A stretch of DNA of 53,534 nt. Source: an uncultured bacterium. GTDB lineage: Bacteria; Patescibacteriota; Minisyncoccia; Moranbacterales; GWC2-37-73. Numbering within the stretch: position 1 is the first letter of the stretch; each line of letters begins with the position of its first letter. The stretch is taken from positions 1 to 53,534 of the forward strand of contig CAINNK010000023.1 of assembly GCA_903851135.1 (NCBI GenBank), in the 5' to 3' direction. Made by a program: the position numbers and the translations under genes. Under the pieces are notes generated by a model. That model had not been told where the DNA came from and searched no databases. It worked only from the letters and a program-made list of their open reading frames with translations. Shown one piece after another: positions 4,401-26,464 of the stretch.

Positions 4401-5006
4401 ATGCTTGTGATTATCACTGGAACATCTGCGAGTGGAAAAACGACGCTCATGAATTTGTTGCAATATGTTTTTGACAACACAGGATTCGTAAAAGCCGTCA
4501 CGACTCGTGCGCCAAGACCAGATGATTCTTCAGAATATGAATATATTTCATCTGAAGAATTCCAAAAATTAATAACCAACAAAGAACTGGTTTCTTGGAG
4601 AAAAGCCAGTACCAATGAGCAACAGAAGGATGATTATTACGGAGTGAAATTTTCAGCCGTTGAAAGGTCGTTCATAGACAATGCAATTTCCATTCGTTCA
4701 GTTACGCCTGAAAATATTTCTGATTGGTATCGATATTTTGGGGAAAAAACTGTTTTCATTCATCTGCTGGCTCCGACTAAAGCTGAGGCCAGACGCAGAA
4801 TGCACAAAAGAGGTGGTCTGAGTGAACCGGCGATTGAAAAAAGAATTCAATTTGAAAAAAATTGGGACCAAGACGTTCGCGCGCTCAAAGAAAATGGCAT
4901 TCTAATCCACCTAATTCCGGCCGGGGCTCTGAAAAATGTGTTTTTTAAGGTTTCTAACATCATTCTGAACTCCAGAATGAAAAGTTTTCTCAAACATAAT
5001 GCCTGA
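4401..5006 (+). CDS. gmk: Guanylate kinase-like P-loop kinase
   Basis: Walker A motif GTSASGKTT and a TTRAPRPDDSSEYEYISSEEF block matching the guanylate kinase TTRxPRxGExxGxxYxF signature. An Arg-rich lid (RRRMHKRG) is present. Confidence 0.6.
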   Translation: MLVIITGTSASGKTTLMNLLQYVFDNTGFVKAVTTRAPRPDDSSEYEYISSEEFQKLITNKELVSWRKASTNEQQKDDYYGVKFSAVERSFIDNAISIRSVTPENISDWYRYFGEKTVFIHLLAPTKAEARRRMHKRGGLSEPAIEKRIQFEKNWDQDVRALKENGILIHLIPAGALKNVFFKVSNIILNSRMKSFLKHNA

Positions 5007-6199: not shown

Positions 6200-7267
6200 A
6201 TGAAAACAATTACAATTACCAAACCGTTTAACGCCCACGTTCATTTTCGCAGCGGCCAGATGATGCGAGACGTTGTGCCCTACACCGCCCAACACTATTT
6301 TGGTGGTGTCTGTATGGGAAATTTGCCAGGCGATGCAGTCATTGACACAATTGAAAAAAATTTAGCCTACAGAGTAGGTATTATGGCTATTGCTCCATTT
6401 TTCAAGCCAACTGTTCCTTTGATGGTAACCAGTCAATTGCTTGAAAATTGCAAGACTATCATCCCAGCAGCCAAAAAACTTGGCATTCGAGTCTACAAGT
6501 TCATCCCTGGAGGACTCACTACTAATGGAGCTCCTGGCCTGTCACTTTTTGATTTCTACACGCCAGTTTTTCGAGAATTTTTTGAGTTGCTGATTGAAAA
6601 TGATTGTGTTTTTTCTTGTCATTTCGAAGTCGGACTTGATTTGATCAACGACAAAGAACTTGATCCAAGGTGCCAAGAAAAACATGCCATCCGCTTTCTG
6701 CAATATTTGCTTGAAAACTTTCCGAAACTAATCATCGCAGTTGAACACGCTTCATCAAAAGAGCTAATTCAATTCATCAAAAGGTTGCCTCGTCGCTACC
6801 AAATAGGCGTCACCCTGGCAATTCATCATGCACTTATTCTCTATCGCATGGTTGCTGATAGAAAAGGAAACTTCCTTGATTCAAGGCTATATTGCAAACC
6901 AATTGCCAAATATCCAAAAGATCGGGAGGCAGTGATTGAAGCCATGTTTAGTGGGGATCCAAGATTCTTCCTCGGCACTGACAGTGCCCCTCATTTTTTG
7001 GAAGCAAAGATTCTGAAAGCAACTCCAGCCGCTGGCATCTTTTCCGATGTTATCTCACTTCAAAAGTATGCAGAACTTTTCGGTGCTCATGGCAAACTGA
7101 AGTATTTTGAAAATTTTGCTTCAATTTTCGGTCCTGAGTTTTATGGCACAAGGCCGAGCAACGAAAAAATCACGCTCATCAAGGAAACGGAAAAAATTCC
7201 AGAGCTGATTGCTGGAATTCCTGTTTTCTTAGGTGGTGGTGAAACTGCCTGGAGAGTTAAAAATTAA
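6200..7267 (+). CDS. pyrC: Dihydroorotase (E. coli PyrC-like type)
   Basis: MKTITITKPFNAHVHFRSGQMMRDVVPYTAQHY...MGNL parallels the E. coli PyrC N-terminus (DDWHLHLRDGDML..VVPYT...MPNL). GGAGGAG SD lies 5 nt before ATG 6200. The upstream M of the ORF track overlaps pyrD. Confidence 0.75.
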   Translation: MKTITITKPFNAHVHFRSGQMMRDVVPYTAQHYFGGVCMGNLPGDAVIDTIEKNLAYRVGIMAIAPFFKPTVPLMVTSQLLENCKTIIPAAKKLGIRVYKFIPGGLTTNGAPGLSLFDFYTPVFREFFELLIENDCVFSCHFEVGLDLINDKELDPRCQEKHAIRFLQYLLENFPKLIIAVEHASSKELIQFIKRLPRRYQIGVTLAIHHALILYRMVADRKGNFLDSRLYCKPIAKYPKDREAVIEAMFSGDPRFFLGTDSAPHFLEAKILKATPAAGIFSDVISLQKYAELFGAHGKLKYFENFASIFGPEFYGTRPSNEKITLIKETEKIPELIAGIPVFLGGGETAWRVKN

Positions 7268-7291
7268 CAATCTTCTGGATTTCTTAATCAA

Positions 7292-7328
7292 AAAGGCTCA
7301 TCTCTTGTGATGAGCCTTTATTCTTTTT
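7292..7328. terminator. Bidirectional terminator between convergent pyrC and SOD genes
   Basis: Stem aaaggctcatc / gatgagccttt (11 bp), flanked by A-rich and T-rich runs. Confidence 0.7.
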
Positions 7329-7344
7329 TATTTTCACAAAAATC

Positions 7345-7932
7345 TTATTGCGCCTCAGCAAAGCGAGCGCTGGCAACGTGCCAGCAAATGTTCTTCATGA
7401 AGGCTTCGATATAGTCAGCTTTTTTGAGACCATATTGAAGCATGTAAGCATGTTCAAAAACATCCAAAACTAAAATCGGAGTTGAGCCTGCTAAATGCCC
7501 ACCGTCATGTTCATTGATCCACACGTTGTTCAATGCCCCAGTGAAATTATCGCGATACAAAACCACCCAACCAATTCCTCGCATCAATGCAATGGCACGA
7601 AAATGTTTTTCCCATTTCTCGAAAGACCCAAATTCTTCAGCAAGTTTCTTGCCCAAAGACGAAGCACTCTCGAGAGTTGAGCCGCCTTTCATCAGATTTT
7701 CAAAATAAAGTTCGTGCAATCTCATACCATTGAATTCCCAACCGAACCTGCGAGTTGTTTCGGCAAATTCAGGTGTCGTTCCCTTTTCATTTTCAACTAA
7801 CTCAGCTGTCAAATTGACTAATTTATTGATGTTGTTAACATAGCCTTCATACAAAGTGAAATGATTCTTCAGCAGCTCATCTGAAAAACCATCTAACCCC
7901 AAAAGATGCTCAAATTTTTTTATTTCGTACAT
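7345..7932 (-). CDS. Fe/Mn superoxide dismutase
   Basis: 195 aa with H..HH-type N-terminus (HFTLYEGY), WINEHDGG and VLDVFEHAYMLQYG, which is the DxWEHAYY-type metal-ligand motif. Confidence 0.85.
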   Translation of the reverse strand: MYEIKKFEHLLGLDGFSDELLKNHFTLYEGYVNNINKLVNLTAELVENEKGTTPEFAETTRRFGWEFNGMRLHELYFENLMKGGSTLESASSLGKKLAEEFGSFEKWEKHFRAIALMRGIGWVVLYRDNFTGALNNVWINEHDGGHLAGSTPILVLDVFEHAYMLQYGLKKADYIEAFMKNICWHVASARFAEAQ

Positions 7933-12947: not shown

Positions 12948-13018
12948 GGCGCTATCGTCTAGTGGTTAGGACACCAGGTTTTTCAGCCAAAGGCTGACCA
13001 CCCCTTGGGTGGCATCCT
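12948..13018 (+). pseudogene. tRNA-Glu 5' fragment carrying a 30-nt insert inside the anticodon, truncated in the anticodon stem
   Basis: 12948-12982 matches the intact tRNA-Glu at 13289-13323. A 30-nt insert follows (12983-13012), then catcct, and homology ends at 13019. Confidence 0.8.
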
Positions 13019-13034
13019 AGCGTTGACTACAATT

Positions 13035-13283
13035 ATGTACTATGTTTATATAATAAAAAGCAAGTTAAAAAAATATTATTATATAGGAAGCACGGAAGAT
13101 TTAAAAAGACGTTTTGAAGAACACAATAGCGGAAAAACCAAATCAATAAAACATCTCATTCCTTTTGAACTTGTTTATTACGAGGCATACAGGGAGAAAG
13201 TTTTAGCTAGAACAAGAGAAATTGATTTAAAGAAGAATAGTTTTAGAAAGAAAGAGTTATTAGATAGAATTGAAAATTTTTAG
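13035..13283 (+). CDS. Small stand-alone GIY-YIG nuclease domain protein
   Basis: 82 aa: MYYVYIIKSKLKKYYYIGSTEDLKRRFEEHNSG...YYEAY....A..RE..LK, the GIY-(x10)-YIG, R and E..N core of the GIY-YIG/URI superfamily. No extra DNA-binding domain. Confidence 0.8.
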   Translation: MYYVYIIKSKLKKYYYIGSTEDLKRRFEEHNSGKTKSIKHLIPFELVYYEAYREKVLARTREIDLKKNSFRKKELLDRIENF

Positions 13284-13288
13284 TATAT

Positions 13289-13363
13289 GGCGCTATCGTC
13301 TAGTGGTTAGGACACCAGGTTTTCATCCTGGTAACAGGAGTCCGATTCTCCTTAGCGCTACCA
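13289..13363 (+). tRNA. tRNA-Glu (anticodon UUC), CCA encoded
   Basis: Hand-folded cloverleaf: acceptor ggcgcta/tagcgct, D arm gtct-agtggtta-ggac, anticodon arm ccagg-ttTTCat-cctgg, T arm aggag-tccgatt-ctcct, discriminator A, then CCA. Confidence 0.9.
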
Positions 13364-13370
13364 AATAAAT

Positions 13371-13460
13371 CTTCGGTTAGAACCCCAGGTTTTTCAGCCA
13401 GAGGCTGACCACCCCCTGGGTGGCATCCTGGTAACAGGAGTCCGATTCTCCTTAGCGCTA
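13371..13460 (+). pseudogene. tRNA-Glu-like copy with degenerate 5' part, 30-nt anticodon insert and intact 3' half
   Basis: cttcggttagaacccc resembles the D arm. It carries the same insert as 12983-13012 with two substitutions. The 3' half (13424-13460) matches the real tRNA exactly. There is no 5' acceptor strand. Confidence 0.75.
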
Positions 13461-13473
13461 CAAATTTTTAAAA

Positions 13474-13494
13474 GCCCCACGAAATGGGGCTTTT
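13474..13494 (+). terminator. Terminator hairpin after the tRNA-Glu copies
   Basis: Stem gcccca / tggggc, loop cgaaa, then tttt, with AAAA upstream. Confidence 0.6.
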
Positions 13495-13512
13495 AAATTT
13501 GTCTAGAGATAA

Positions 13513-13616
13513 GAGAGAATCGGACGGGCGCGAGTAGGATGCGAGCAAGTGCGAGCATTCTGTGTGTAGCGCCCCAGCTTCGAGTCAGAGCGAAGAAGCG
13601 ATTCTCCTTAGCGCTA
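13513..13616 (+). other. Hairpin element capped by the tRNA-Glu 3' end (T-arm-antisense arm, ~73-nt GC-rich core, T-arm 3' strand plus acceptor 3' strand)
   Basis: gagagaatcgga (13513-13524) is the reverse complement of the tRNA T-loop/T-stem tccgattctc. The core is 13526-13598. The element ends with cgattctccttagcgcta, identical to the tRNA-Glu 3' end. Confidence 0.7.
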
Positions 13617-13626
13617 CAAACAGAAA

Positions 13627-13657
13627 ATCCCCAGCATTTATTGCTGGGGATTTTTTG
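13627..13657 (+). terminator. Strong rho-independent terminator
   Basis: Stem atccccagca / tgctggggat (10 bp), loop tttat, then tttttt. Confidence 0.8.
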
Positions 13658-13775
13658 CCTAACGATAATGGGAGCTTCCAGAGGACCATCCTCCATCAGT
13701 GTCTAATCTTAATATTACAAACCACCATACAAAAGAAACTTTTTCAAAAATAGTTCCTAGATGTGTACTACATGA

Positions 13776-13812
13776 AAAATTAAATGCGGTTATCTTTAAT
13801 AGATAACCGCAT
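13776..13812 (-). terminator. Terminator downstream of the isochorismatase-family gene
   Basis: Stem atgcggttatc / gataaccgcat (11 bp), followed on the minus strand by a T-rich run. Confidence 0.6.
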
Positions 13813-13846
13813 CACAAATAAAAAAGCAGCCAAGGAACTGTAGAAG

Positions 13847-14389
13847 TTAAACAGACATAGAAAATTCCAAAACATTATCAATACAATTGCCGTTAGACTT
13901 AAACCACTCAATGCTATTATCAAGGCTATGGAATTTTTGACCTGAGATAACTTCATTGCTTGTTATAATCCGATACCCTAGATAAATTGCATGCTCTGCT
14001 GTGCTTTTGACACAATAATCGGCATTAATCCCCATGATTAAAAGATTTTCAACCCCAATTGATTTCAAGTAAGAATTTAATCTAGTTTCTTGAAAGCCAC
14101 TGTTGTAATCTTTTTTAATTACGCGACATTTAGGAGCCTTCAGTGCCGCTCTCAAAAGAATTTTAATAGTGTGTCCATAGTTATAACTTTTTAATTCCAA
14201 AACTACAACTGGGATCTTAGCCCTCACACAATGCTTCAAGACGGCAAGCTGTCTTGCTATTATGCGCTCAGCCTCTCCGTCTCTTAACCTTCCAACAAAC
14301 TTTTCTTGCATGTCGATCAACACAACAGCAAGATTGCCGGAATCTTTAATTGGCTGCTTTTTCACAATACCTCCTTTTTTTAATTTCAA
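13847..14389 (-). CDS. Isochorismatase-family cysteine hydrolase
   Basis: VVLIDMQEKF (catalytic Asp region), a conserved Lys region, and GINADYCVKSTAEHA, which is the DxCV catalytic Cys motif. Confidence 0.8.
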   Translation of the reverse strand: MKLKKGGIVKKQPIKDSGNLAVVLIDMQEKFVGRLRDGEAERIIARQLAVLKHCVRAKIPVVVLELKSYNYGHTIKILLRAALKAPKCRVIKKDYNSGFQETRLNSYLKSIGVENLLIMGINADYCVKSTAEHAIYLGYRIITSNEVISGQKFHSLDNSIEWFKSNGNCIDNVLEFSMSV

Positions 14390-14753
14390 GTTTAGTAAAT
14401 TGCCTCAAGCTCTCAACAAAAGATCAAAGCAATCTACTAAAAGTGAAACCACAATAATTCAAAGAACAACAAAAAAGGATAGCATTTTATTGACTTTTTG
14501 TCAAACGAAAACACAAACAAAAGTACGAAAAATCCCCTAAGAAGGCCTTTAAGTTACATTTAAACTACAAAGGAACCAGACCGATAGGATTGAAAATTGA
14601 GCCAAGATAAGAAAGAAGTTAATAACAAGTTATGAACATATTACAGCTTTTTAGCTGTTATTAATGAAAAATAATGATTTATAATATAAATGAAGACAAG
14701 ACCTTGCTTAATATAGAGAAGCCTATGGAGGACCATCATCTGCTAGAATTTCA

Positions 14754-14794
14754 TTTTCATCTTGGTAACAGGAGTCCGATTCTCCTTAGCGCTA
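14754..14794 (+). pseudogene. tRNA-Glu 3' half fragment (starts in the anticodon loop)
   Basis: ttttcatcttggtaacaggagtccgattctccttagcgcta has one mismatch to the 3' half of the real tRNA. It is followed by a decayed copy of the 13627-13657 terminator. Confidence 0.8.
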
Positions 14795-15025
14795 CAAACA
14801 AGAAATCCCCAGCATTTATTGCTAGAGATTTTTATTTATCTGGCAATAAAAAAACCAGACCAACATAAACTTTCAGAGTACCATCTCTATTGTGGACTAC
14901 GTTTTTACAAAAAATAACGTGATACAATTATTTTTTCTATAAATATTGACATGCAATGCAAAATACCCTATAAAACTAGTAGCTTGCTTCTAACATGAAG
15001 CTTAATTTAACAAGGGAGATTGCTG

Positions 15026-17286: not shown

Positions 17287-18645
17287 ATGTCAACCAGACA
17301 AATTATTTCTCAAAAAAAATTAAAAGCAAAAACAAGGGCAACAAAAAAACTCCTAGTTCTTGCCATTGAAACTTCTTGTGATGAAACTGCAATTTCAGTC
17401 CTTAGCTACGAAAAAAATATCCCTACGATTCTTTCCAGCGAGGTTTCGTCTCAAATAAAACTACACGCCAAATGGGGAGGCGTCGTGCCAAATTTGGCTG
17501 CACGCGAACACACAAAAAACATCGACCACGTCCTTGCGACTGCCCTGGCCCACTCAAAAGTAGTACCGACCGATATAGACTTTATTTCAGTCACTCAAGG
17601 ACCGGGCCTAATTCCGGCTCTTTTGGTGGGCGTTAACTATGCCAAAACCCTAGCCTATCTTTGGGAAAAACCTCTGCTTGGAATTCACCACATTGAAGGA
17701 CACATCTACGCTAATTTTATCTCCGATAAAATTAGCGCAAGCTCCAATAACCAAAAAACAAATTCCAAAAAAAATCCAAATGCGATTCTAGAATCTAAAA
17801 TCAAAAATCTAAAATCTGCTTTGCGTTTTCCAATTTTATGTTTGGTAGTTTCCGGCGGTCACACTCAGTTGGCGCTGATGATAGATCATTTGGAATATGA
17901 AATCATCGGCCAAACTGTTGATGACGCTGTTGGTGAAGCCTTTGACAAAGTCGCCCGCATTCTTGGCATCGGCTATCCAGGAGGACCAGCCGTCGCCACT
18001 TGGGCAGCAAAACACAAAACATGGAACATGGAACATGCAGCAAAATTTCAAAATCCAAATAACCAGATGATGGCCGACCTAAAAGCTAATGAAGCTAACA
18101 GCTATAAGCTAGTCTTCCCTCGTCCAATGCTCAACAAACAAAATTTCAATTTTTCTTTTTCCGGACTCAAGACGGCCGTGCTTTATGAAACCAAAAAACA
18201 TCTCGCCCGCAACGCTTCGCAAGTGAGCTCTGCTCAAAATAAAAACTCATTACAAAATAATTGCTCCCGTAGCGATGCGAGCGGGCCAGACTCATTTGAC
18301 AAAAAATATATTGCCGAGGTTTGCCATGAATTTCAACAAGCATGTGTGGATGTGCTGGTTGCCAAAACTATCAAAGCTGCTGAAAAATATCAACCCAAAA
18401 CCATTCTGCTGGCTGGCGGCGTCAGTGCCAACACCGAGCTGCGAACGCAACTTGGCCAAGCCCTTGAAAAAAATATGCCCCATGTGTCCTATTGCATCCC
18501 AGAGTTAGAACTGACTGGCGATAACGCGGCCATGATTGGAGCCGCCGCCGCTTTTCGCTGGGAAAAAATGAGCGCTGTCCAAAAAGAAAAAGCGCTGTCC
18601 AACTGGAAAACGCTTCAACCCAATGCTAATTTGAAAATGAAATAA
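17287..18645 (+). CDS. tsaD: tRNA N6-adenosine threonylcarbamoyltransferase TsaD (with long insertions)
   Basis: LAIETSCDETA, HHIEGHIY, VSGGHTQL, GYPGGP, SFSGLKTAV and LAGGVSAN are the Kae1/TsaD signature blocks. The protein is 452 aa against roughly 340 typical. Confidence 0.85.
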   Translation: MSTRQIISQKKLKAKTRATKKLLVLAIETSCDETAISVLSYEKNIPTILSSEVSSQIKLHAKWGGVVPNLAAREHTKNIDHVLATALAHSKVVPTDIDFISVTQGPGLIPALLVGVNYAKTLAYLWEKPLLGIHHIEGHIYANFISDKISASSNNQKTNSKKNPNAILESKIKNLKSALRFPILCLVVSGGHTQLALMIDHLEYEIIGQTVDDAVGEAFDKVARILGIGYPGGPAVATWAAKHKTWNMEHAAKFQNPNNQMMADLKANEANSYKLVFPRPMLNKQNFNFSFSGLKTAVLYETKKHLARNASQVSSAQNKNSLQNNCSRSDASGPDSFDKKYIAEVCHEFQQACVDVLVAKTIKAAEKYQPKTILLAGGVSANTELRTQLGQALEKNMPHVSYCIPELELTGDNAAMIGAAAAFRWEKMSAVQKEKALSNWKTLQPNANLKMK

Positions 18646-25549: not shown

Positions 25550-25620
25550 GCGCTGTTAGCCCTGCCCGCAATGCTTCGCATAGCGATGCAGGCTGGTCAG
25601 TTGGTGTAACAAGCCATCAA
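25550..25620 (+). pseudogene. tRNA-Lys 5' shadow copy with a 36-nt hairpin inserted in the D arm
   Basis: gcgctgttagc (identical to tRNA-Lys nt 1-11), then cctgcccgcaatgcttcgcatagcgatgcaggctgg (25561-25596), then tcagttggt (D loop), then diverged sequence. Confidence 0.7.
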
Positions 25621-25649: not shown

Positions 25650-25722
25650 GCGCTGTTAGCTCAGTTGGTAGAGCAGATCCCTCTTAAGGATATGGTCGGG
25701 GGTTCAAATCCCTCACAGCGCA
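25650..25722 (+). tRNA. tRNA-Lys (anticodon CUU)
   Basis: Acceptor gcgctgt/acagcgc, D loop agctcagttggtagagc, anticodon loop ctCTTaa, T arm ggggg-ttcaaat-ccctc, discriminator A. Confidence 0.9.
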
Positions 25723-25770
25723 CAATTTTCAAAAAGTTTTTGACTTTTTGAAAAATAAAAAAAGTTAAAA

Positions 25771-25867
25771 GGGATTTGAAGGGCGCGAGTAAAATGCGAG
25801 TGTGCGAGCATTTTGTGCGCAGCGCCCAGGCTCCGAGTCGGAGCGAGGAGAAATCCCTCACAGCGCA
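25771..25867 (+). other. Hairpin element capped by the tRNA-Lys 3' end (homologous core to 13526-13598)
   Basis: gggatttgaa (reverse complement of T-loop ttcaaatccc), a 70-nt core (25781-25850), then aaatccctcacagcgca, which equals the tRNA-Lys 3' end. The 54 bp from aaatccc onward exactly repeat 25706-25759. Confidence 0.7.
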
Positions 25868-25913
25868 CAATTTTCAAAAAGTTTTTGACTTTTTGAAAAA
25901 TAAACACAGCTAC

Positions 25914-25985
25914 GCCCCCATAGCTCAACGGATAGAGCAATAGCCTTCTAAGCTGAAGATCTAGGTTCGATTCCTGGTGGGGGTA
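25914..25985 (+). tRNA. tRNA-Arg (anticodon UCU)
   Basis: Acceptor gccccca/tgggggt, anticodon loop ctTCTaa, T arm ctagg-ttcgatt-cctgg, discriminator A. Confidence 0.85.
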
Positions 25986-26004
25986 CAAAATGGAAGTTTG
26001 AACA

Positions 26005-26120
26005 CCCAGCAGGAATCGAACAGAAAAGGGGTCGGGAAAAACTAGGTTTTCCCGCGGCGGAAGTCTTGAAACCGATGGGCTTCAAAGAGCGAAGCGAGTG
26101 AGATTTTCCTGGTGGGGGTA
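26005..26120 (+). other. Hairpin element capped by the tRNA-Arg(UCU) 3' end
   Basis: cccagcaggaatcgaa (26005-26020) is the reverse complement of tRNA T-arm/acceptor ttcgattcctggtggg with 1 mismatch. A structured GC-rich core follows, and the element ends ttcctggtgggggta, the tRNA 3' end. Confidence 0.6.
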
Positions 26121-26125
26121 CGGAG

Positions 26126-26228: not shown

Positions 26229-26301
26229 GGCGGGTATCGTCTATCGGTTAAGACATCGGTTTGTGGTACCGAGAAGTTGGGTTCGACTCCCAGTACTCGC
26301 C
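26229..26301 (+). tRNA. tRNA-His (anticodon GUG) with encoded G-1
   Basis: G-1 is opposite discriminator C73. Acceptor gcgggta/tactcgc, anticodon loop ttGTGgt, T arm ttggg-ttcgact-cccag. Confidence 0.85.
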
Positions 26302-26330
26302 CCGTTTGGTTTTCAAAAATTTCGAAAATT

Positions 26331-26403
26331 GCGTTCGTAGCTCAAAGGATAGAGCACTTGACTTCGGATCAAGGGGTTGCAGGTTCGAGTCCTGCCGAGC
26401 GCA
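26331..26403 (+). tRNA. tRNA-Arg (anticodon UCG)
   Basis: Acceptor gcgttcg/cgagcgc, anticodon arm cttga-ctTCGga-tcaag, T arm gcagg-ttcgagt-cctgc, discriminator A. Confidence 0.85.
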
Positions 26404-26464
26404 CAAAGAAAAAACTCCGATTTTCGTCGGGATTTTTTGTTGCCACATTAAATCAATTTTTTGA

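Follow-up and report, generated by a model that had tools for sequence, protein, structure and literature searches.

Introduction

The locus described here raises the question of why a short, GC-rich and apparently structured sequence should carry at its two ends an inverted and a direct copy of the 3' part of the very tRNA gene that it follows. It lies in a stretch of 53,534 nucleotides from an uncultured bacterium of the Moranbacterales (assembly GCA_903851135.1, contig CAINNK010000023.1), the whole of which is referred to here as the window, and it had been singled out in a preliminary description that proposed a three-part element capped by the 3' end of tRNA-Glu, a related core behind tRNA-Lys and a choice of speculative roles. 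We call the family of ~70-nt cores to which both belong 'type A', denote the inverted and the direct arm as A' and A, and use L-numbers for loci from other contigs. Most likely, type A is a small non-autonomous repeat that targets tRNA genes and has hitherto not been described; full-text literature searches found no description of such elements, which is not proof of its absence. More specifically, the sequence organization suggests a non-autonomous, structure-dependent mobile element that would enter tRNA genes at the T-loop and duplicate target sequence, a reading that we see as evenly poised between right and wrong; of the roles offered at the outset, a tRNA-targeting mobile element fits best.

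Elements at the tRNA-Glu and tRNA-Lys loci

At the tRNA-Glu locus the element spans 13513-13620, with an inverted arm of 13 nt, a core of 73 nt and a direct arm of 22 nt, and all three parts are present in the sequence as they had first been described. The inverted copy of the tRNA-Glu 3' region, A' (13485-13525, + strand), comprises these inner 13 nt and a diverged outer part: 13513-13525, gagagaatcggac, is the exact reverse complement of tRNA-Glu G53-C63, and the outer stretch (13485-13513) is ~79% complementary to acceptor and flank (13451-13479). It is followed by the GC-rich core (13526-13598, + strand) and by A (13599-13620, + strand), CGATTCTCCTTAGCGCTACAAA, which repeats tRNA-Glu positions 56-73 and three flank bases in direct orientation and is 100% identical to 13443-13464 and 95% identical to the intact gene (13343-13364). 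The first 8 nt of A pair with A' over 8 bp (gagaatcg/cgattctc) to form the helix P1. The element had been taken to follow tRNA-Glu, which holds with a qualification: directly ahead of it stand a partial tRNA-Glu copy, running from the D-loop to the 3' end with a 30-nt GC double hairpin in its anticodon loop (13375-13461, + strand), and a terminator-like hairpin (13467-13497), and not the intact tRNA-Glu(TTC) (13289-13363, + strand; ARAGORN, Rfam) that is the source of the 3' part copied in the arms. The same locus occurs at 99.8-100% identity in contigs of three independent assemblies and is therefore not an assembly artefact; contig L003 ends exactly at its arm.

The idea that the acceptor 3' strand is left free to act as a primer, a decoy or a substrate for CCA addition found no direct support. 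The direct arm ends GCTACAAA, as do older gene copies with their flank (ACAAA), and not GCTACCA; it represents gene plus flank, and a terminator-like hairpin lies ahead of it. A mimic of a mature tRNA 3' end would be recognized by a copy that ends in CCA where the gene lacks it, and the Glu arm is no such copy. Priming by a mature tRNA at something like a retroviral primer-binding site was likewise rejected, as the arms consist of gene and flank without a CCA complement and most A' arms lack an acceptor complement. The T-loop of the window tRNA-Glu itself (13341-13347) reads TCCGATT, with C at position 55 in place of the near-universal U (pseudouridine 55), and the same C is seen in the Glu tRNAs of L038, L042 and L054.

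A second element follows tRNA-Lys(CTT) (25650-25723, + strand; ARAGORN, Rfam), again the source of the 3' part found in its arms. Here A' (25768-25780, + strand), aaagggatttgaa, is the reverse complement of tRNA-Lys T54-T64, the core occupies 25781-25850 (+ strand), and A (25851-25912, + strand) directly repeats the 62 nt of 25706-25767, from tRNA-Lys A57 up to and including the AT hairpin that lies downstream. The two cores are identical at 59/73 positions (81%), in agreement with the ~80% first estimated by eye; the outer helix gggcgc/gcgccc in both, the inner helix as ggatgc/gcattc (Glu) and aaatgc/gcattt (Lys), and three GCGAG motifs in each core are all there. A 20-nt core motif has two matches in the window as against 0.00 expected by chance, and a covariance model run with filters off over the 53.5 kb finds exactly two copies, at 116 and 102 bits, the next match scoring 17.5 bits; the two cores are therefore not a matter of chance. 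On the 5' side of tRNA-Lys, the region 25551-25620 repeats the flank ahead of tRNA-Lys and the initial 11 nt of the gene (5' fragment 25551-25561) and continues with a 36-nt GC hairpin (CCTGCCCGCAATGCTTCGCATAGCGATGCAGGCTGG) and a degenerate D-arm-like stretch.

Predicted fold of the core

Comparison of the copies supports a model in which the tRNA-sense strand of type A folds as a three-way junction in which P1 is joined by two hairpins, the long and bulged P2 and the short P3, the latter with a conserved GAGUCGGAGCGA loop. At the Glu locus, P2 has an outer helix (GGGCGC 13526-31/GCGCCC 13569-74) and an inner helix (GGATGC 13537-42/GCATTC 13555-60) with a loop closed by a tandem G.A-type CGAG/CGAG motif, and P3 pairs CTTC (13578-81) with GAAG around the conserved loop GAGTCAGAGC(GA). 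Predicted folding energies are -44.1 kcal/mol (z = -3.45) for the Glu and -40.2 kcal/mol (z = -2.57) for the Lys element. When this structure (P1, 9 bp; P2 outer, 6 bp; P2 inner, 6+1 bp; P3, 4 bp) is laid over an alignment of 26 sequences, 91.7% of paired cells are complementary as against 38-53% in slid controls, 12 pairs are altered on both sides, and 0/500 shuffles reach the observed values, all of these statistics, like the arm permutations given below, taking no account of shared ancestry. Compensatory change beyond controls, by which conserved structured RNAs are generally recognized, is thus found, and the structured element with compensatory change that had been proposed from two copies stands up in the larger set; five of the 12 double-change pairs come from the core helices, and covariation in P1 is expected because both of its arms derive from the target.

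The outer helix of P2 occurs as GGGCGC/GCGCCC, GAGTGC/GCGCTC and GGGTG/CACCC, pairs of the inner helix as G-C, A-U and G.U, and P3 as CTTC/GAAG, CTCC/GGAG, CTGC/GCAG, TTTC/GAAA and GTCC/GGAC. P3 is not derived from the target, because L040 and L047, both at tRNA-Ser(TGA), differ in their P3 pairs. Within the core helices 26 G.T stand against 8 A.C, an excess that indicates the tRNA-sense strand. Loops and junctions are more conserved than stems: GAGTA, TGTGTGTAG, GAGTCGGAGCGA and the CGAG/CGAG tandem-GA-like motif closing P2 are nearly invariant over lineages of 36-65% GC, and TGTGTGTAG|GCGCCC includes GTAG, which recalls the GTAG-type cleavage motif at the foot of REP/REPIN-RAYT or IS200/IS605 PATE hairpins. 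RNAalifold prefers P3 as CTYCG/CGGAG, which was dropped in favour of CTYC/GRAG, since the latter accounts for the double changes in L040, L048 and L069; both pairings may form. A T-arm-like hairpin made of the core 3' end and A, as seen in minimum free energy (MFE) folds, is perfect in L084 and was discarded as it is not general over the copies. The Rfam scan that had been recommended gives no family for the cores: at the gathering threshold, Rfam 15 matches only the five tRNAs in the window, and with E values of up to 10 nothing over the cores of the Glu and Lys loci, nor of related loci, comes near a gathering score.

Occurrence in other genomes

Is this core peculiar to one contig? The pattern GGGCGCGAGTANNATGCGAG picked out 18 loci in GTDB species genomes, 12 of which are genuine copies and six chance matches in GC-rich genomes; 11 of the 12 lie in AT-rich metagenome-assembled genomes (MAGs) of Candidatus Moranbacteria or Parcubacteria and one in a MAG of 63% GC labelled Bdellovibrionales. 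In metagenomes of the Joint Genome Institute (JGI), scanned with a different pattern, 25/40 loci bear genuine copies. nhmmer and the covariance model agree on ~30 distinct type A copies of 69-73 nt. Every copy with a tRNA present has the same orientation as that tRNA, and for 25 copies a called tRNA lies 22-162 nt upstream of the core. These tRNAs belong to 12 isoacceptors (Ser-CGA, Ser-TGA, Ser-GGA, Glu-TTC, Glu-CTC, Lys-CTT, Lys-TTT, Gly-TCC, Asp-GTC, Pro-TGG, Trp-CCA and Tyr-GTA). In L046 the 3' end of a tRNA is visible although the gene is not called by ARAGORN, and the two copies of L081 are a tandem form of the L083 locus interrupted by a contig end. An exact 3'-end repeat is lacking in 38/57 tRNA contexts, a test that diverged arms escape.

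The expectation that the core would recur elsewhere, each time tailored to the adjoining tRNA, is borne out by these copies, nearly all of which, as the covariance-model search of related MAGs had been meant to establish, are tRNA-linked and have arms from their own tRNA. The outcomes named beforehand as telling against the element (no other copies, no link to tRNAs, broken helices) did not materialize, with one exception. As to tRNA linkage, the 25 copies with a called, co-oriented upstream tRNA uphold the claim, and L053 (~1040-1170, - strand) and L069 (~540-650, - strand) fall outside it: both are type A copies with full tRNA-like arms and no tRNA nearby, at an orthologous site just behind a protein-gene terminator, and their arms differ between the two genomes. 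In L053 a second, different element lies directly downstream of the type A copy.

Loop variants are of two kinds. GAATAC is common to Ser, Lys and Glu loci, and other variants track the locus, i.e. TGTGC at Lys (window, L079, L080) and CAAGTGC at Glu (window, L038, L042). In the viral contig collection the specific core pattern has 0 copies, and a loose pattern of GCGAG triplets, tried and set aside, yielded almost only chance matches in GC-rich phages; among its matches are GC-rich perfect hairpins with GCGAG in two viral contigs of 37-44% GC (L006, 2336-2444, and L019), at a marginal covariance-model score (E = 0.92). A phage origin of the locus was rejected, since megablast against phage genomes matched tRNA-Glu genes only and the window is housekeeping chromosome. 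A repeat family in GC-rich contigs (58-69%; L060, L066, L067, L070, L072, L075) shows an ATGCGAG-N-CGAGCAT hairpin and GAGTCGGAGCG in the same order as type A; it is not tRNA-linked, its covariance-model score is marginal (E = 0.28), and it is possibly a distant relative of type A, homology being unproven. One of its copies lies as a tandem partial duplication inside a SufU-like open reading frame (ORF) (L072, 170-358), and another, in L075, carries an inserted group II intron (869-2675, Rfam).

Anatomy of the arms

In every type A copy the 5' arm represents the inverted T-loop and 3' T-stem of its own tRNA and the 3' arm the 3' end of its own tRNA, and the tRNA upstream of each tRNA-linked copy is intact. 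A' terminates at the complement of T54/G53. Wherever the direct copy was mapped, it begins at T-loop position 56-58, 15-20 nt short of the tRNA end; its other end ranges from the discriminator to about 40 nt past the tRNA end, which gives direct repeats of 8 to >56 nt. The junction shifts by single bases: most copies have it at 56|57, Glu at 55|56, and Gly and Trp at 57|58. At T-stem positions 62-64, the 5' arm matches its own 3' arm in 60/69 cells as against 49 after permuting arms among loci (0/10000 permutations), with the proviso on ancestry made above. The two arms differ in what they have kept: in nearly all copies the paired T-part and the unpaired acceptor part of A are both identical to the tRNA, and A' has kept 10-12/12 of its T-part and usually 0-4/8 of its acceptor complement. 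Long A' arms with a recognizable acceptor complement occur in the Glu copies (26 nt, ~80%), L043 (21 nt), L053 and the types B (25 nt) and E described below. In L079 both arms keep A57:T where the tRNA has G57, so that the two arms change in concert and are not steadily overwritten by conversion from the tRNA, and in L057 and L039 the acceptor part of A has decayed. The spacer between tRNA and A' has no conserved sequence, and the conserved unit is therefore the core alone.

A direct repeat from the T-loop to or past the tRNA end, together with a restored tRNA, is the textbook signature of integration into tRNA genes, and type A could accordingly be seen as a relic of attL or attR: small elements or phages with a tRNA 3' end in attP would have integrated at the T-loop sublocation and decayed, leaving the attR-proximal arm. 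A further feature of the window fits, i.e. the ~1.1-kb isochorismatase segment that lies between tRNA-Glu 3' copies and near-identical terminators (13599-13657, 14754-14835). We nevertheless consider such relics a very improbable source. There is no integrase among the ~50 ORFs of the window searched with Pfam, the 'island' measures merely ~100-150 nt, and one and the same core stands at 12 tRNA types, so that the tRNA segment of attP would need many exchanges. Moreover, the junction is fuzzy by one base either way, unlike a site-specific crossover, a covarying conserved fold is unexpected for relic DNA, and the viral contig collection holds no copy. The early dismissal of att remnants hence holds as far as the shared 70-nt core, the inverted arm and the absent integrase go, which they leave unexplained, and went too far with regard to the direct repeat beside an intact tRNA, a classic mark of integration.

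How type A may enter tRNA genes

The reading that we favour, i.e. a mobile element entering at the T-loop, would account for these arms in the following way. The T-loop sequence GTTCRAATC is common to all tRNAs, or nearly so. The core would insert where the T-loop DNA of a tRNA gene has been nicked or broken, and the target from the nick outward would be copied, so that an intact tRNA would remain to one side and A, the copy, to the opposite side. The result would be a long target duplication with one end fixed in the T-loop and the other variable and outside the gene; each copy would therefore come out 'tailored' with no need for a re-programmed guide, and an essential single-copy tRNA would survive. 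Only insertions with the second break outside the gene would persist, because the tRNA genes concerned are presumably essential and present once. The inverted arm would most plausibly be made by fold-back or template-switch synthesis on the same target, with A' being retained only where its pairing closes P1 and the part complementary to the acceptor being lost. The conserved fold, as RNA or as single-stranded DNA, would be recognized by an enzyme encoded elsewhere.

Type A behaves as a selfish repeat would. There are tandem arrays (three copies in L079, the last of them truncated, and two in L081) and a nested arrangement (a type B-like core within the type A core of L036, ~4433-4500), the GAATAC loop variant is shared among loci, and type B differs between genomes by presence and absence.

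Several observations weigh against this reading. One concerns the synthesis of the arms. L077-Trp, window Arg-B and window Glu have the layout A, short loop, A', core, A, which fits a pure fold-back, i.e. a hairpin after the tRNA made of flank and inverted flank. As a general explanation pure fold-back was rejected, as it does not fit L042, L043 and L047: in L042, as in window Lys, the direct repeat covers the whole downstream hairpin, and in L043 and L047 a terminator stands between the tRNA and A', so that a simple fold-back step is in difficulty at all four loci. A second concerns the acceptor part, which is identical to the tRNA in A in nearly all copies and at background in A', unlike a purely neutral scar. 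A third is the pair of tRNA-less copies in L053 and L069. Furthermore, all sampled species have an element at Lys-CTT, Ser-CGA, Ser-TGA and Glu-CTC (and, in the case of type E, at Arg-GCG), with compensatory change, and this looks like long vertical retention under selection rather than recent mobility. Finally, no mobilizing gene was found near type A (Pfam over the ~50 ORFs of the window; the GIY-YIG gene discussed below is not linked), and no clean empty-versus-filled pair of close type A alleles was obtained, which is why insertion is inferred and not seen.

Other elements at tRNA loci

Type A is not alone. At least three further core families (B, D and E) have the layout A'-core-A. Type B follows tRNA-Arg(TCT) in the window (25997-26121, + strand), with the layout of type A and a different core: A' (25997-26021) has 25 nt and is 88% complementary to the tRNA 3' end, the core (26022-26102, ~80 nt) ends GAGCGAAGCGAGTGAG, and A (26103-26121) is a direct copy of the tRNA-Arg(TCT) 3' end. 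It is found in the window and in L080 (1868-1990), and the orthologous Arg(TCT) sites of L043, L054, L079 and L086 lack it, a distribution by which type B at Arg(TCT) is a lineage-specific gain as far as the sampled sequences go. Type D lies after tRNA-Ser(GCT) (L085, 6148-6290), and type E after tRNA-Arg(GCG) in four species (L047, ~4440-4600, - strand; L040; L083; L085), its inverted arm being interrupted by a 23-nt hairpin. There are also mirror-image duplications on the 5' side, in which the flank and tRNA positions 1-11 to 1-35 are followed by small GC-rich hairpins and then by the intact tRNA; such 5' tRNA fragments accompany 3' elements at the same tRNAs in 6/6 cases. Mirror-image duplications with other small hairpins are seen at tRNA-Ser in L085, L048, L040 and L083.

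For types A, B, D and E a reading akin to short interspersed nuclear elements (SINEs) or to guide RNAs can be envisaged, in which a trans-acting enzyme would recognize the folded core and nick the T-loop, the nick would prime copying of the element, and fold-back synthesis would build the inverted arm. If true, this would be a new bacterial mode of target-templated insertion directed at tRNA genes. Alternatively, a tRNA-like molecule in two pieces might result from pairing between a processed RNA and the tRNA 5' acceptor strand. That one or the other, a new insertion mechanism or a two-piece tRNA-like RNA, is at work seems to us unlikely.

Nuclease-like ORFs also lie at tRNA loci. An 82-aa GIY-YIG nuclease ORF (13035-13283, + strand; Pfam 6.5e-16; no DNA-binding domain) lies between a 5' tRNA-Glu fragment with GC hairpin and the intact, CCA-encoding tRNA-Glu(TTC), and the same arrangement exists in L054 (1650-1880, - strand), a different Moranbacteria genome; the arrangement is suggestive of a free-standing homing-endonuclease cassette by which a tRNA is carried or regenerated. 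In L079 a 179-aa ORF with an HNH-type motif (HHIDCNHKNNTPENLKWLCHNCH; 6951-7490, - strand) lies between tRNA-Arg(TCT) and tRNA-His, with a Pfam HNH_3 match (E = 0.0027) below the cut-off. A tRNA-His 3' half, from the GTG anticodon onward and without a 5' half, is found in L043 (1987-2042) between tRNA-Arg(TCT) and tRNA-Arg(TCG).

Type A might then be a by-product of such endonucleases: GIY-YIG or HNH enzymes would cut tRNA genes, and template-switch repair would copy a GC-rich hairpin of another locus via the conserved TTCGAATC microhomology along with local inverted and direct duplications. The nuclease ORFs themselves point this way: both the window and L054 have a GIY-YIG ORF within tRNA-Glu, accompanied by a duplicated 5' tRNA fragment and a GC hairpin, and L079 has its HNH-like ORF. 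In addition, the T-loop motif of all tRNAs offers at least 8 nt of microhomology with every A or A' arm. It remains an improbable origin, since patch repair leaves selection on the fold of the core unexplained, the HNH match is below the Pfam cut-off, and GIY-YIG is confined to tRNA-Glu(TTC) and does not adjoin type A copies. It also overlaps with the mobile-element reading, the sole difference being that the core would be passive. For the same reason the GIY-YIG protein was rejected as the mobilizing enzyme of type A, as its tblastn matches are restricted to the tRNA-Glu(TTC) loci of the window and L054 and do not lie beside type A copies. Given the tandem and nested copies, the gain of type B, the families D and E, the 5' duplications and the GIY-YIG and HNH-like ORFs, the tRNA loci of these genomes are therefore a general landing zone for selfish DNA.

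A possible role for the host

A conserved fold that is filled in at orthologous loci across species would also be expected of an RNA useful to the host, co-transcribed with tRNAs and controlling or assisting their maturation. In such an RNA, A' would be antisense to T-loop and T-stem, A a sense decoy and mimic of the 3' half, and the core a protein-binding or sensing scaffold; in a variant, an assembly of the split-tRNA or tmRNA kind would form, the module supplying a spare 3' half for the tRNA 5' acceptor strand to pair with. We regard this as doubtful, though far from negligible. Loops and junctions conserved above stems, compensatory changes and the strand bias of G.U pairs speak for it, as do the unpaired acceptor strand of A, identical to the tRNA, and the joint occurrence of 5' fragments and 3' elements at the same tRNAs. 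Many copies, furthermore, sit inside tRNA operons (Lys-[A]-Arg-[B]-His-Arg in the window, Trp-[A]-Glu in L077) and must therefore undergo at least transient transcription, and MFE folds of the whole transcript join the 5' acceptor strand to the downstream A and the real T-region to A'. In the window, however, the Glu copy lies behind a terminator-like hairpin, and no promoter-like site was seen with it. Tandem, nested, truncated and tRNA-less copies suit a dedicated function poorly, most tRNAs do without the element (to judge from the contexts lacking an exact 3'-end repeat, a count that misses diverged arms), L079 has A57:T in its arms where the tRNA has G57, and the acceptor part of A is decayed in L057 and L039.

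Surroundings in the window

Apart from these elements the window is an ordinary chromosome of the Candidate Phyla Radiation (CPR) type with ~39% GC and with housekeeping genes that include ValRS, TsaD, a type IV pilus operon, ThiI, BipA and Lgt. The tRNA genes already named, together with tRNA-Arg-TCT (25914-25986), tRNA-His (26230-26303) and tRNA-Arg-TCG (26331-26404), make up the five called in the window by ARAGORN and Rfam. Among the ~50 ORFs of the window, Pfam searches found no gene for a transposase, an integrase, an HUH enzyme or a reverse transcriptase (RT), and the 53 kb of genome examined contain no PF01797-type match, as would be expected of the Y1 HUH transposase (RAYT/TnpA) behind REP/REPIN-RAYT or IS200/IS605 PATE repeats. 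The TsaD/Kae1 homologue (17287-18645, + strand; 452 aa) matches its Pfam family in two separate stretches, which suggests an insertion of ~100 aa.

The tRNA-Glu locus as a whole reads, in order, 5' half of tRNA-Glu, GIY-YIG ORF, intact tRNA-Glu, partial copy, terminator-like hairpin, element, hairpin, isochorismatase-family gene on the opposite strand and tRNA-Glu 3' half. The 5' half (12948-12982), like the partial copy, has the 30-nt GC double hairpin in its anticodon loop: the two hairpins (TCAGCCARAGGCTGA CCACCCCYTGGGTGG), at 12983-13012 and 13394-13423, are identical, two occurrences in the window as against 0 expected. At the other end, the tRNA-Glu 3' half (14754-14798) is followed by a hairpin (14799-14835) nearly identical to the one behind the element (13621-13657). 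These hairpins and the tRNA-Glu 3' copies bound the ~1.1-kb segment (13599-14835) with the isochorismatase-family gene (13847-14389, - strand); its right-hand tRNA-Glu copy begins in the anticodon loop, and the segment resembles a miniature island at the anticodon-loop sublocation.

Implications

CPR bacteria have genomes of ~1 Mb and single-copy tRNA genes, yet their tRNA loci bear families of conserved folded elements. If type A is mobile, it shows that a parasite can aim at the T-loop, a universally conserved and essential motif, and yet spare the gene, which would point to a nicking or priming enzyme with near-universal specificity for tRNA genes and possibly to a use in programmable safe-harbour insertion. 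If the elements are functional RNAs, they would be tRNA-linked regulators or spare parts of a new class. Type A repeats fragment metagenome assemblies at tRNA loci, as at the end of L003, and may mislead the annotation of tRNAs and att sites.

Comparison with known systems

Among small repeats, miniature inverted-repeat transposable elements (MITEs), repetitive extragenic palindromic (REP) sequences and Rickettsia palindromic elements (RPEs), as well as the GC clusters of yeast mitochondria (PMC4478555), resemble type A in being short, non-coding, GC-rich hairpins in an AT-rich genome. Such repeats are also multi-copy, nested and in tandem, and have no gene of their own. Type A is likewise multi-copy, short and non-coding, but its arms vary by locus and match the local tRNA, where MITEs have constant terminal inverted repeats of their own; it targets a specific position in the tRNA loop, as MITE and REP repeats do not; and its direct repeat of 8 to >56 nt, with one fixed and one variable end, contrasts with the fixed target-site duplication of 2-10 bp in MITEs.

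Elements with tyrosine integrases target tRNA genes at T-loop and anticodon-loop sublocations. Like type A, they leave a direct repeat of the tRNA 3' part from the T-loop onward and an intact tRNA. Type A has the bounding direct repeat and restored tRNA of an att site but, in an insert of ~100-150 nt, neither integrase (within or adjoining it) nor cargo, and it differs further in using one core for 12 tRNA types, in its extra inverted arm and in its fuzzy junction.

The folded single-strand sites CTX-phi attP(+) and integron attC are recombined by XerCD or IntI. These share with type A a strand-specific imperfect hairpin, paired arms that recreate the target duplex and ~70-90 nt between the inverted arms; their sequences are fixed, however, whereas the arms of type A change with the target. 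The omega-RNAs of TnpB and IscB, with a structured scaffold followed by ~18-20 nt equal to the adjacent target, recall the core and its direct arm, but there is no tnpB or iscB near type A, half of the 'guide' is held in P1, and Rfam gives no match. Variants of Neurospora mitochondrial retroplasmids capture tRNA sequences by template switching and integrate at the matching tRNA gene; the copy of part of a tRNA, the location beside that tRNA and the flanking tRNA repeats are all reminiscent of type A, although these plasmids are of kilobase size, encode an RT and capture tRNAs with CCA, in contrast to arms that consist of gene and flank without CCA.

The retroelements that target tRNA genes in Dictyostelium (TREs) and other non-long-terminal-repeat elements and SINEs insert by target-primed reverse transcription, a eukaryotic mechanism. 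Type A differs from them in having no poly(A)-like tail, and no RT was found in the window. Nevertheless, the single fixed junction, the variable duplication and the specificity for tRNA genes are common to both, and, by analogy with SINEs, type A as we favour seeing it would be a non-autonomous, structured element that is mobilized in trans.

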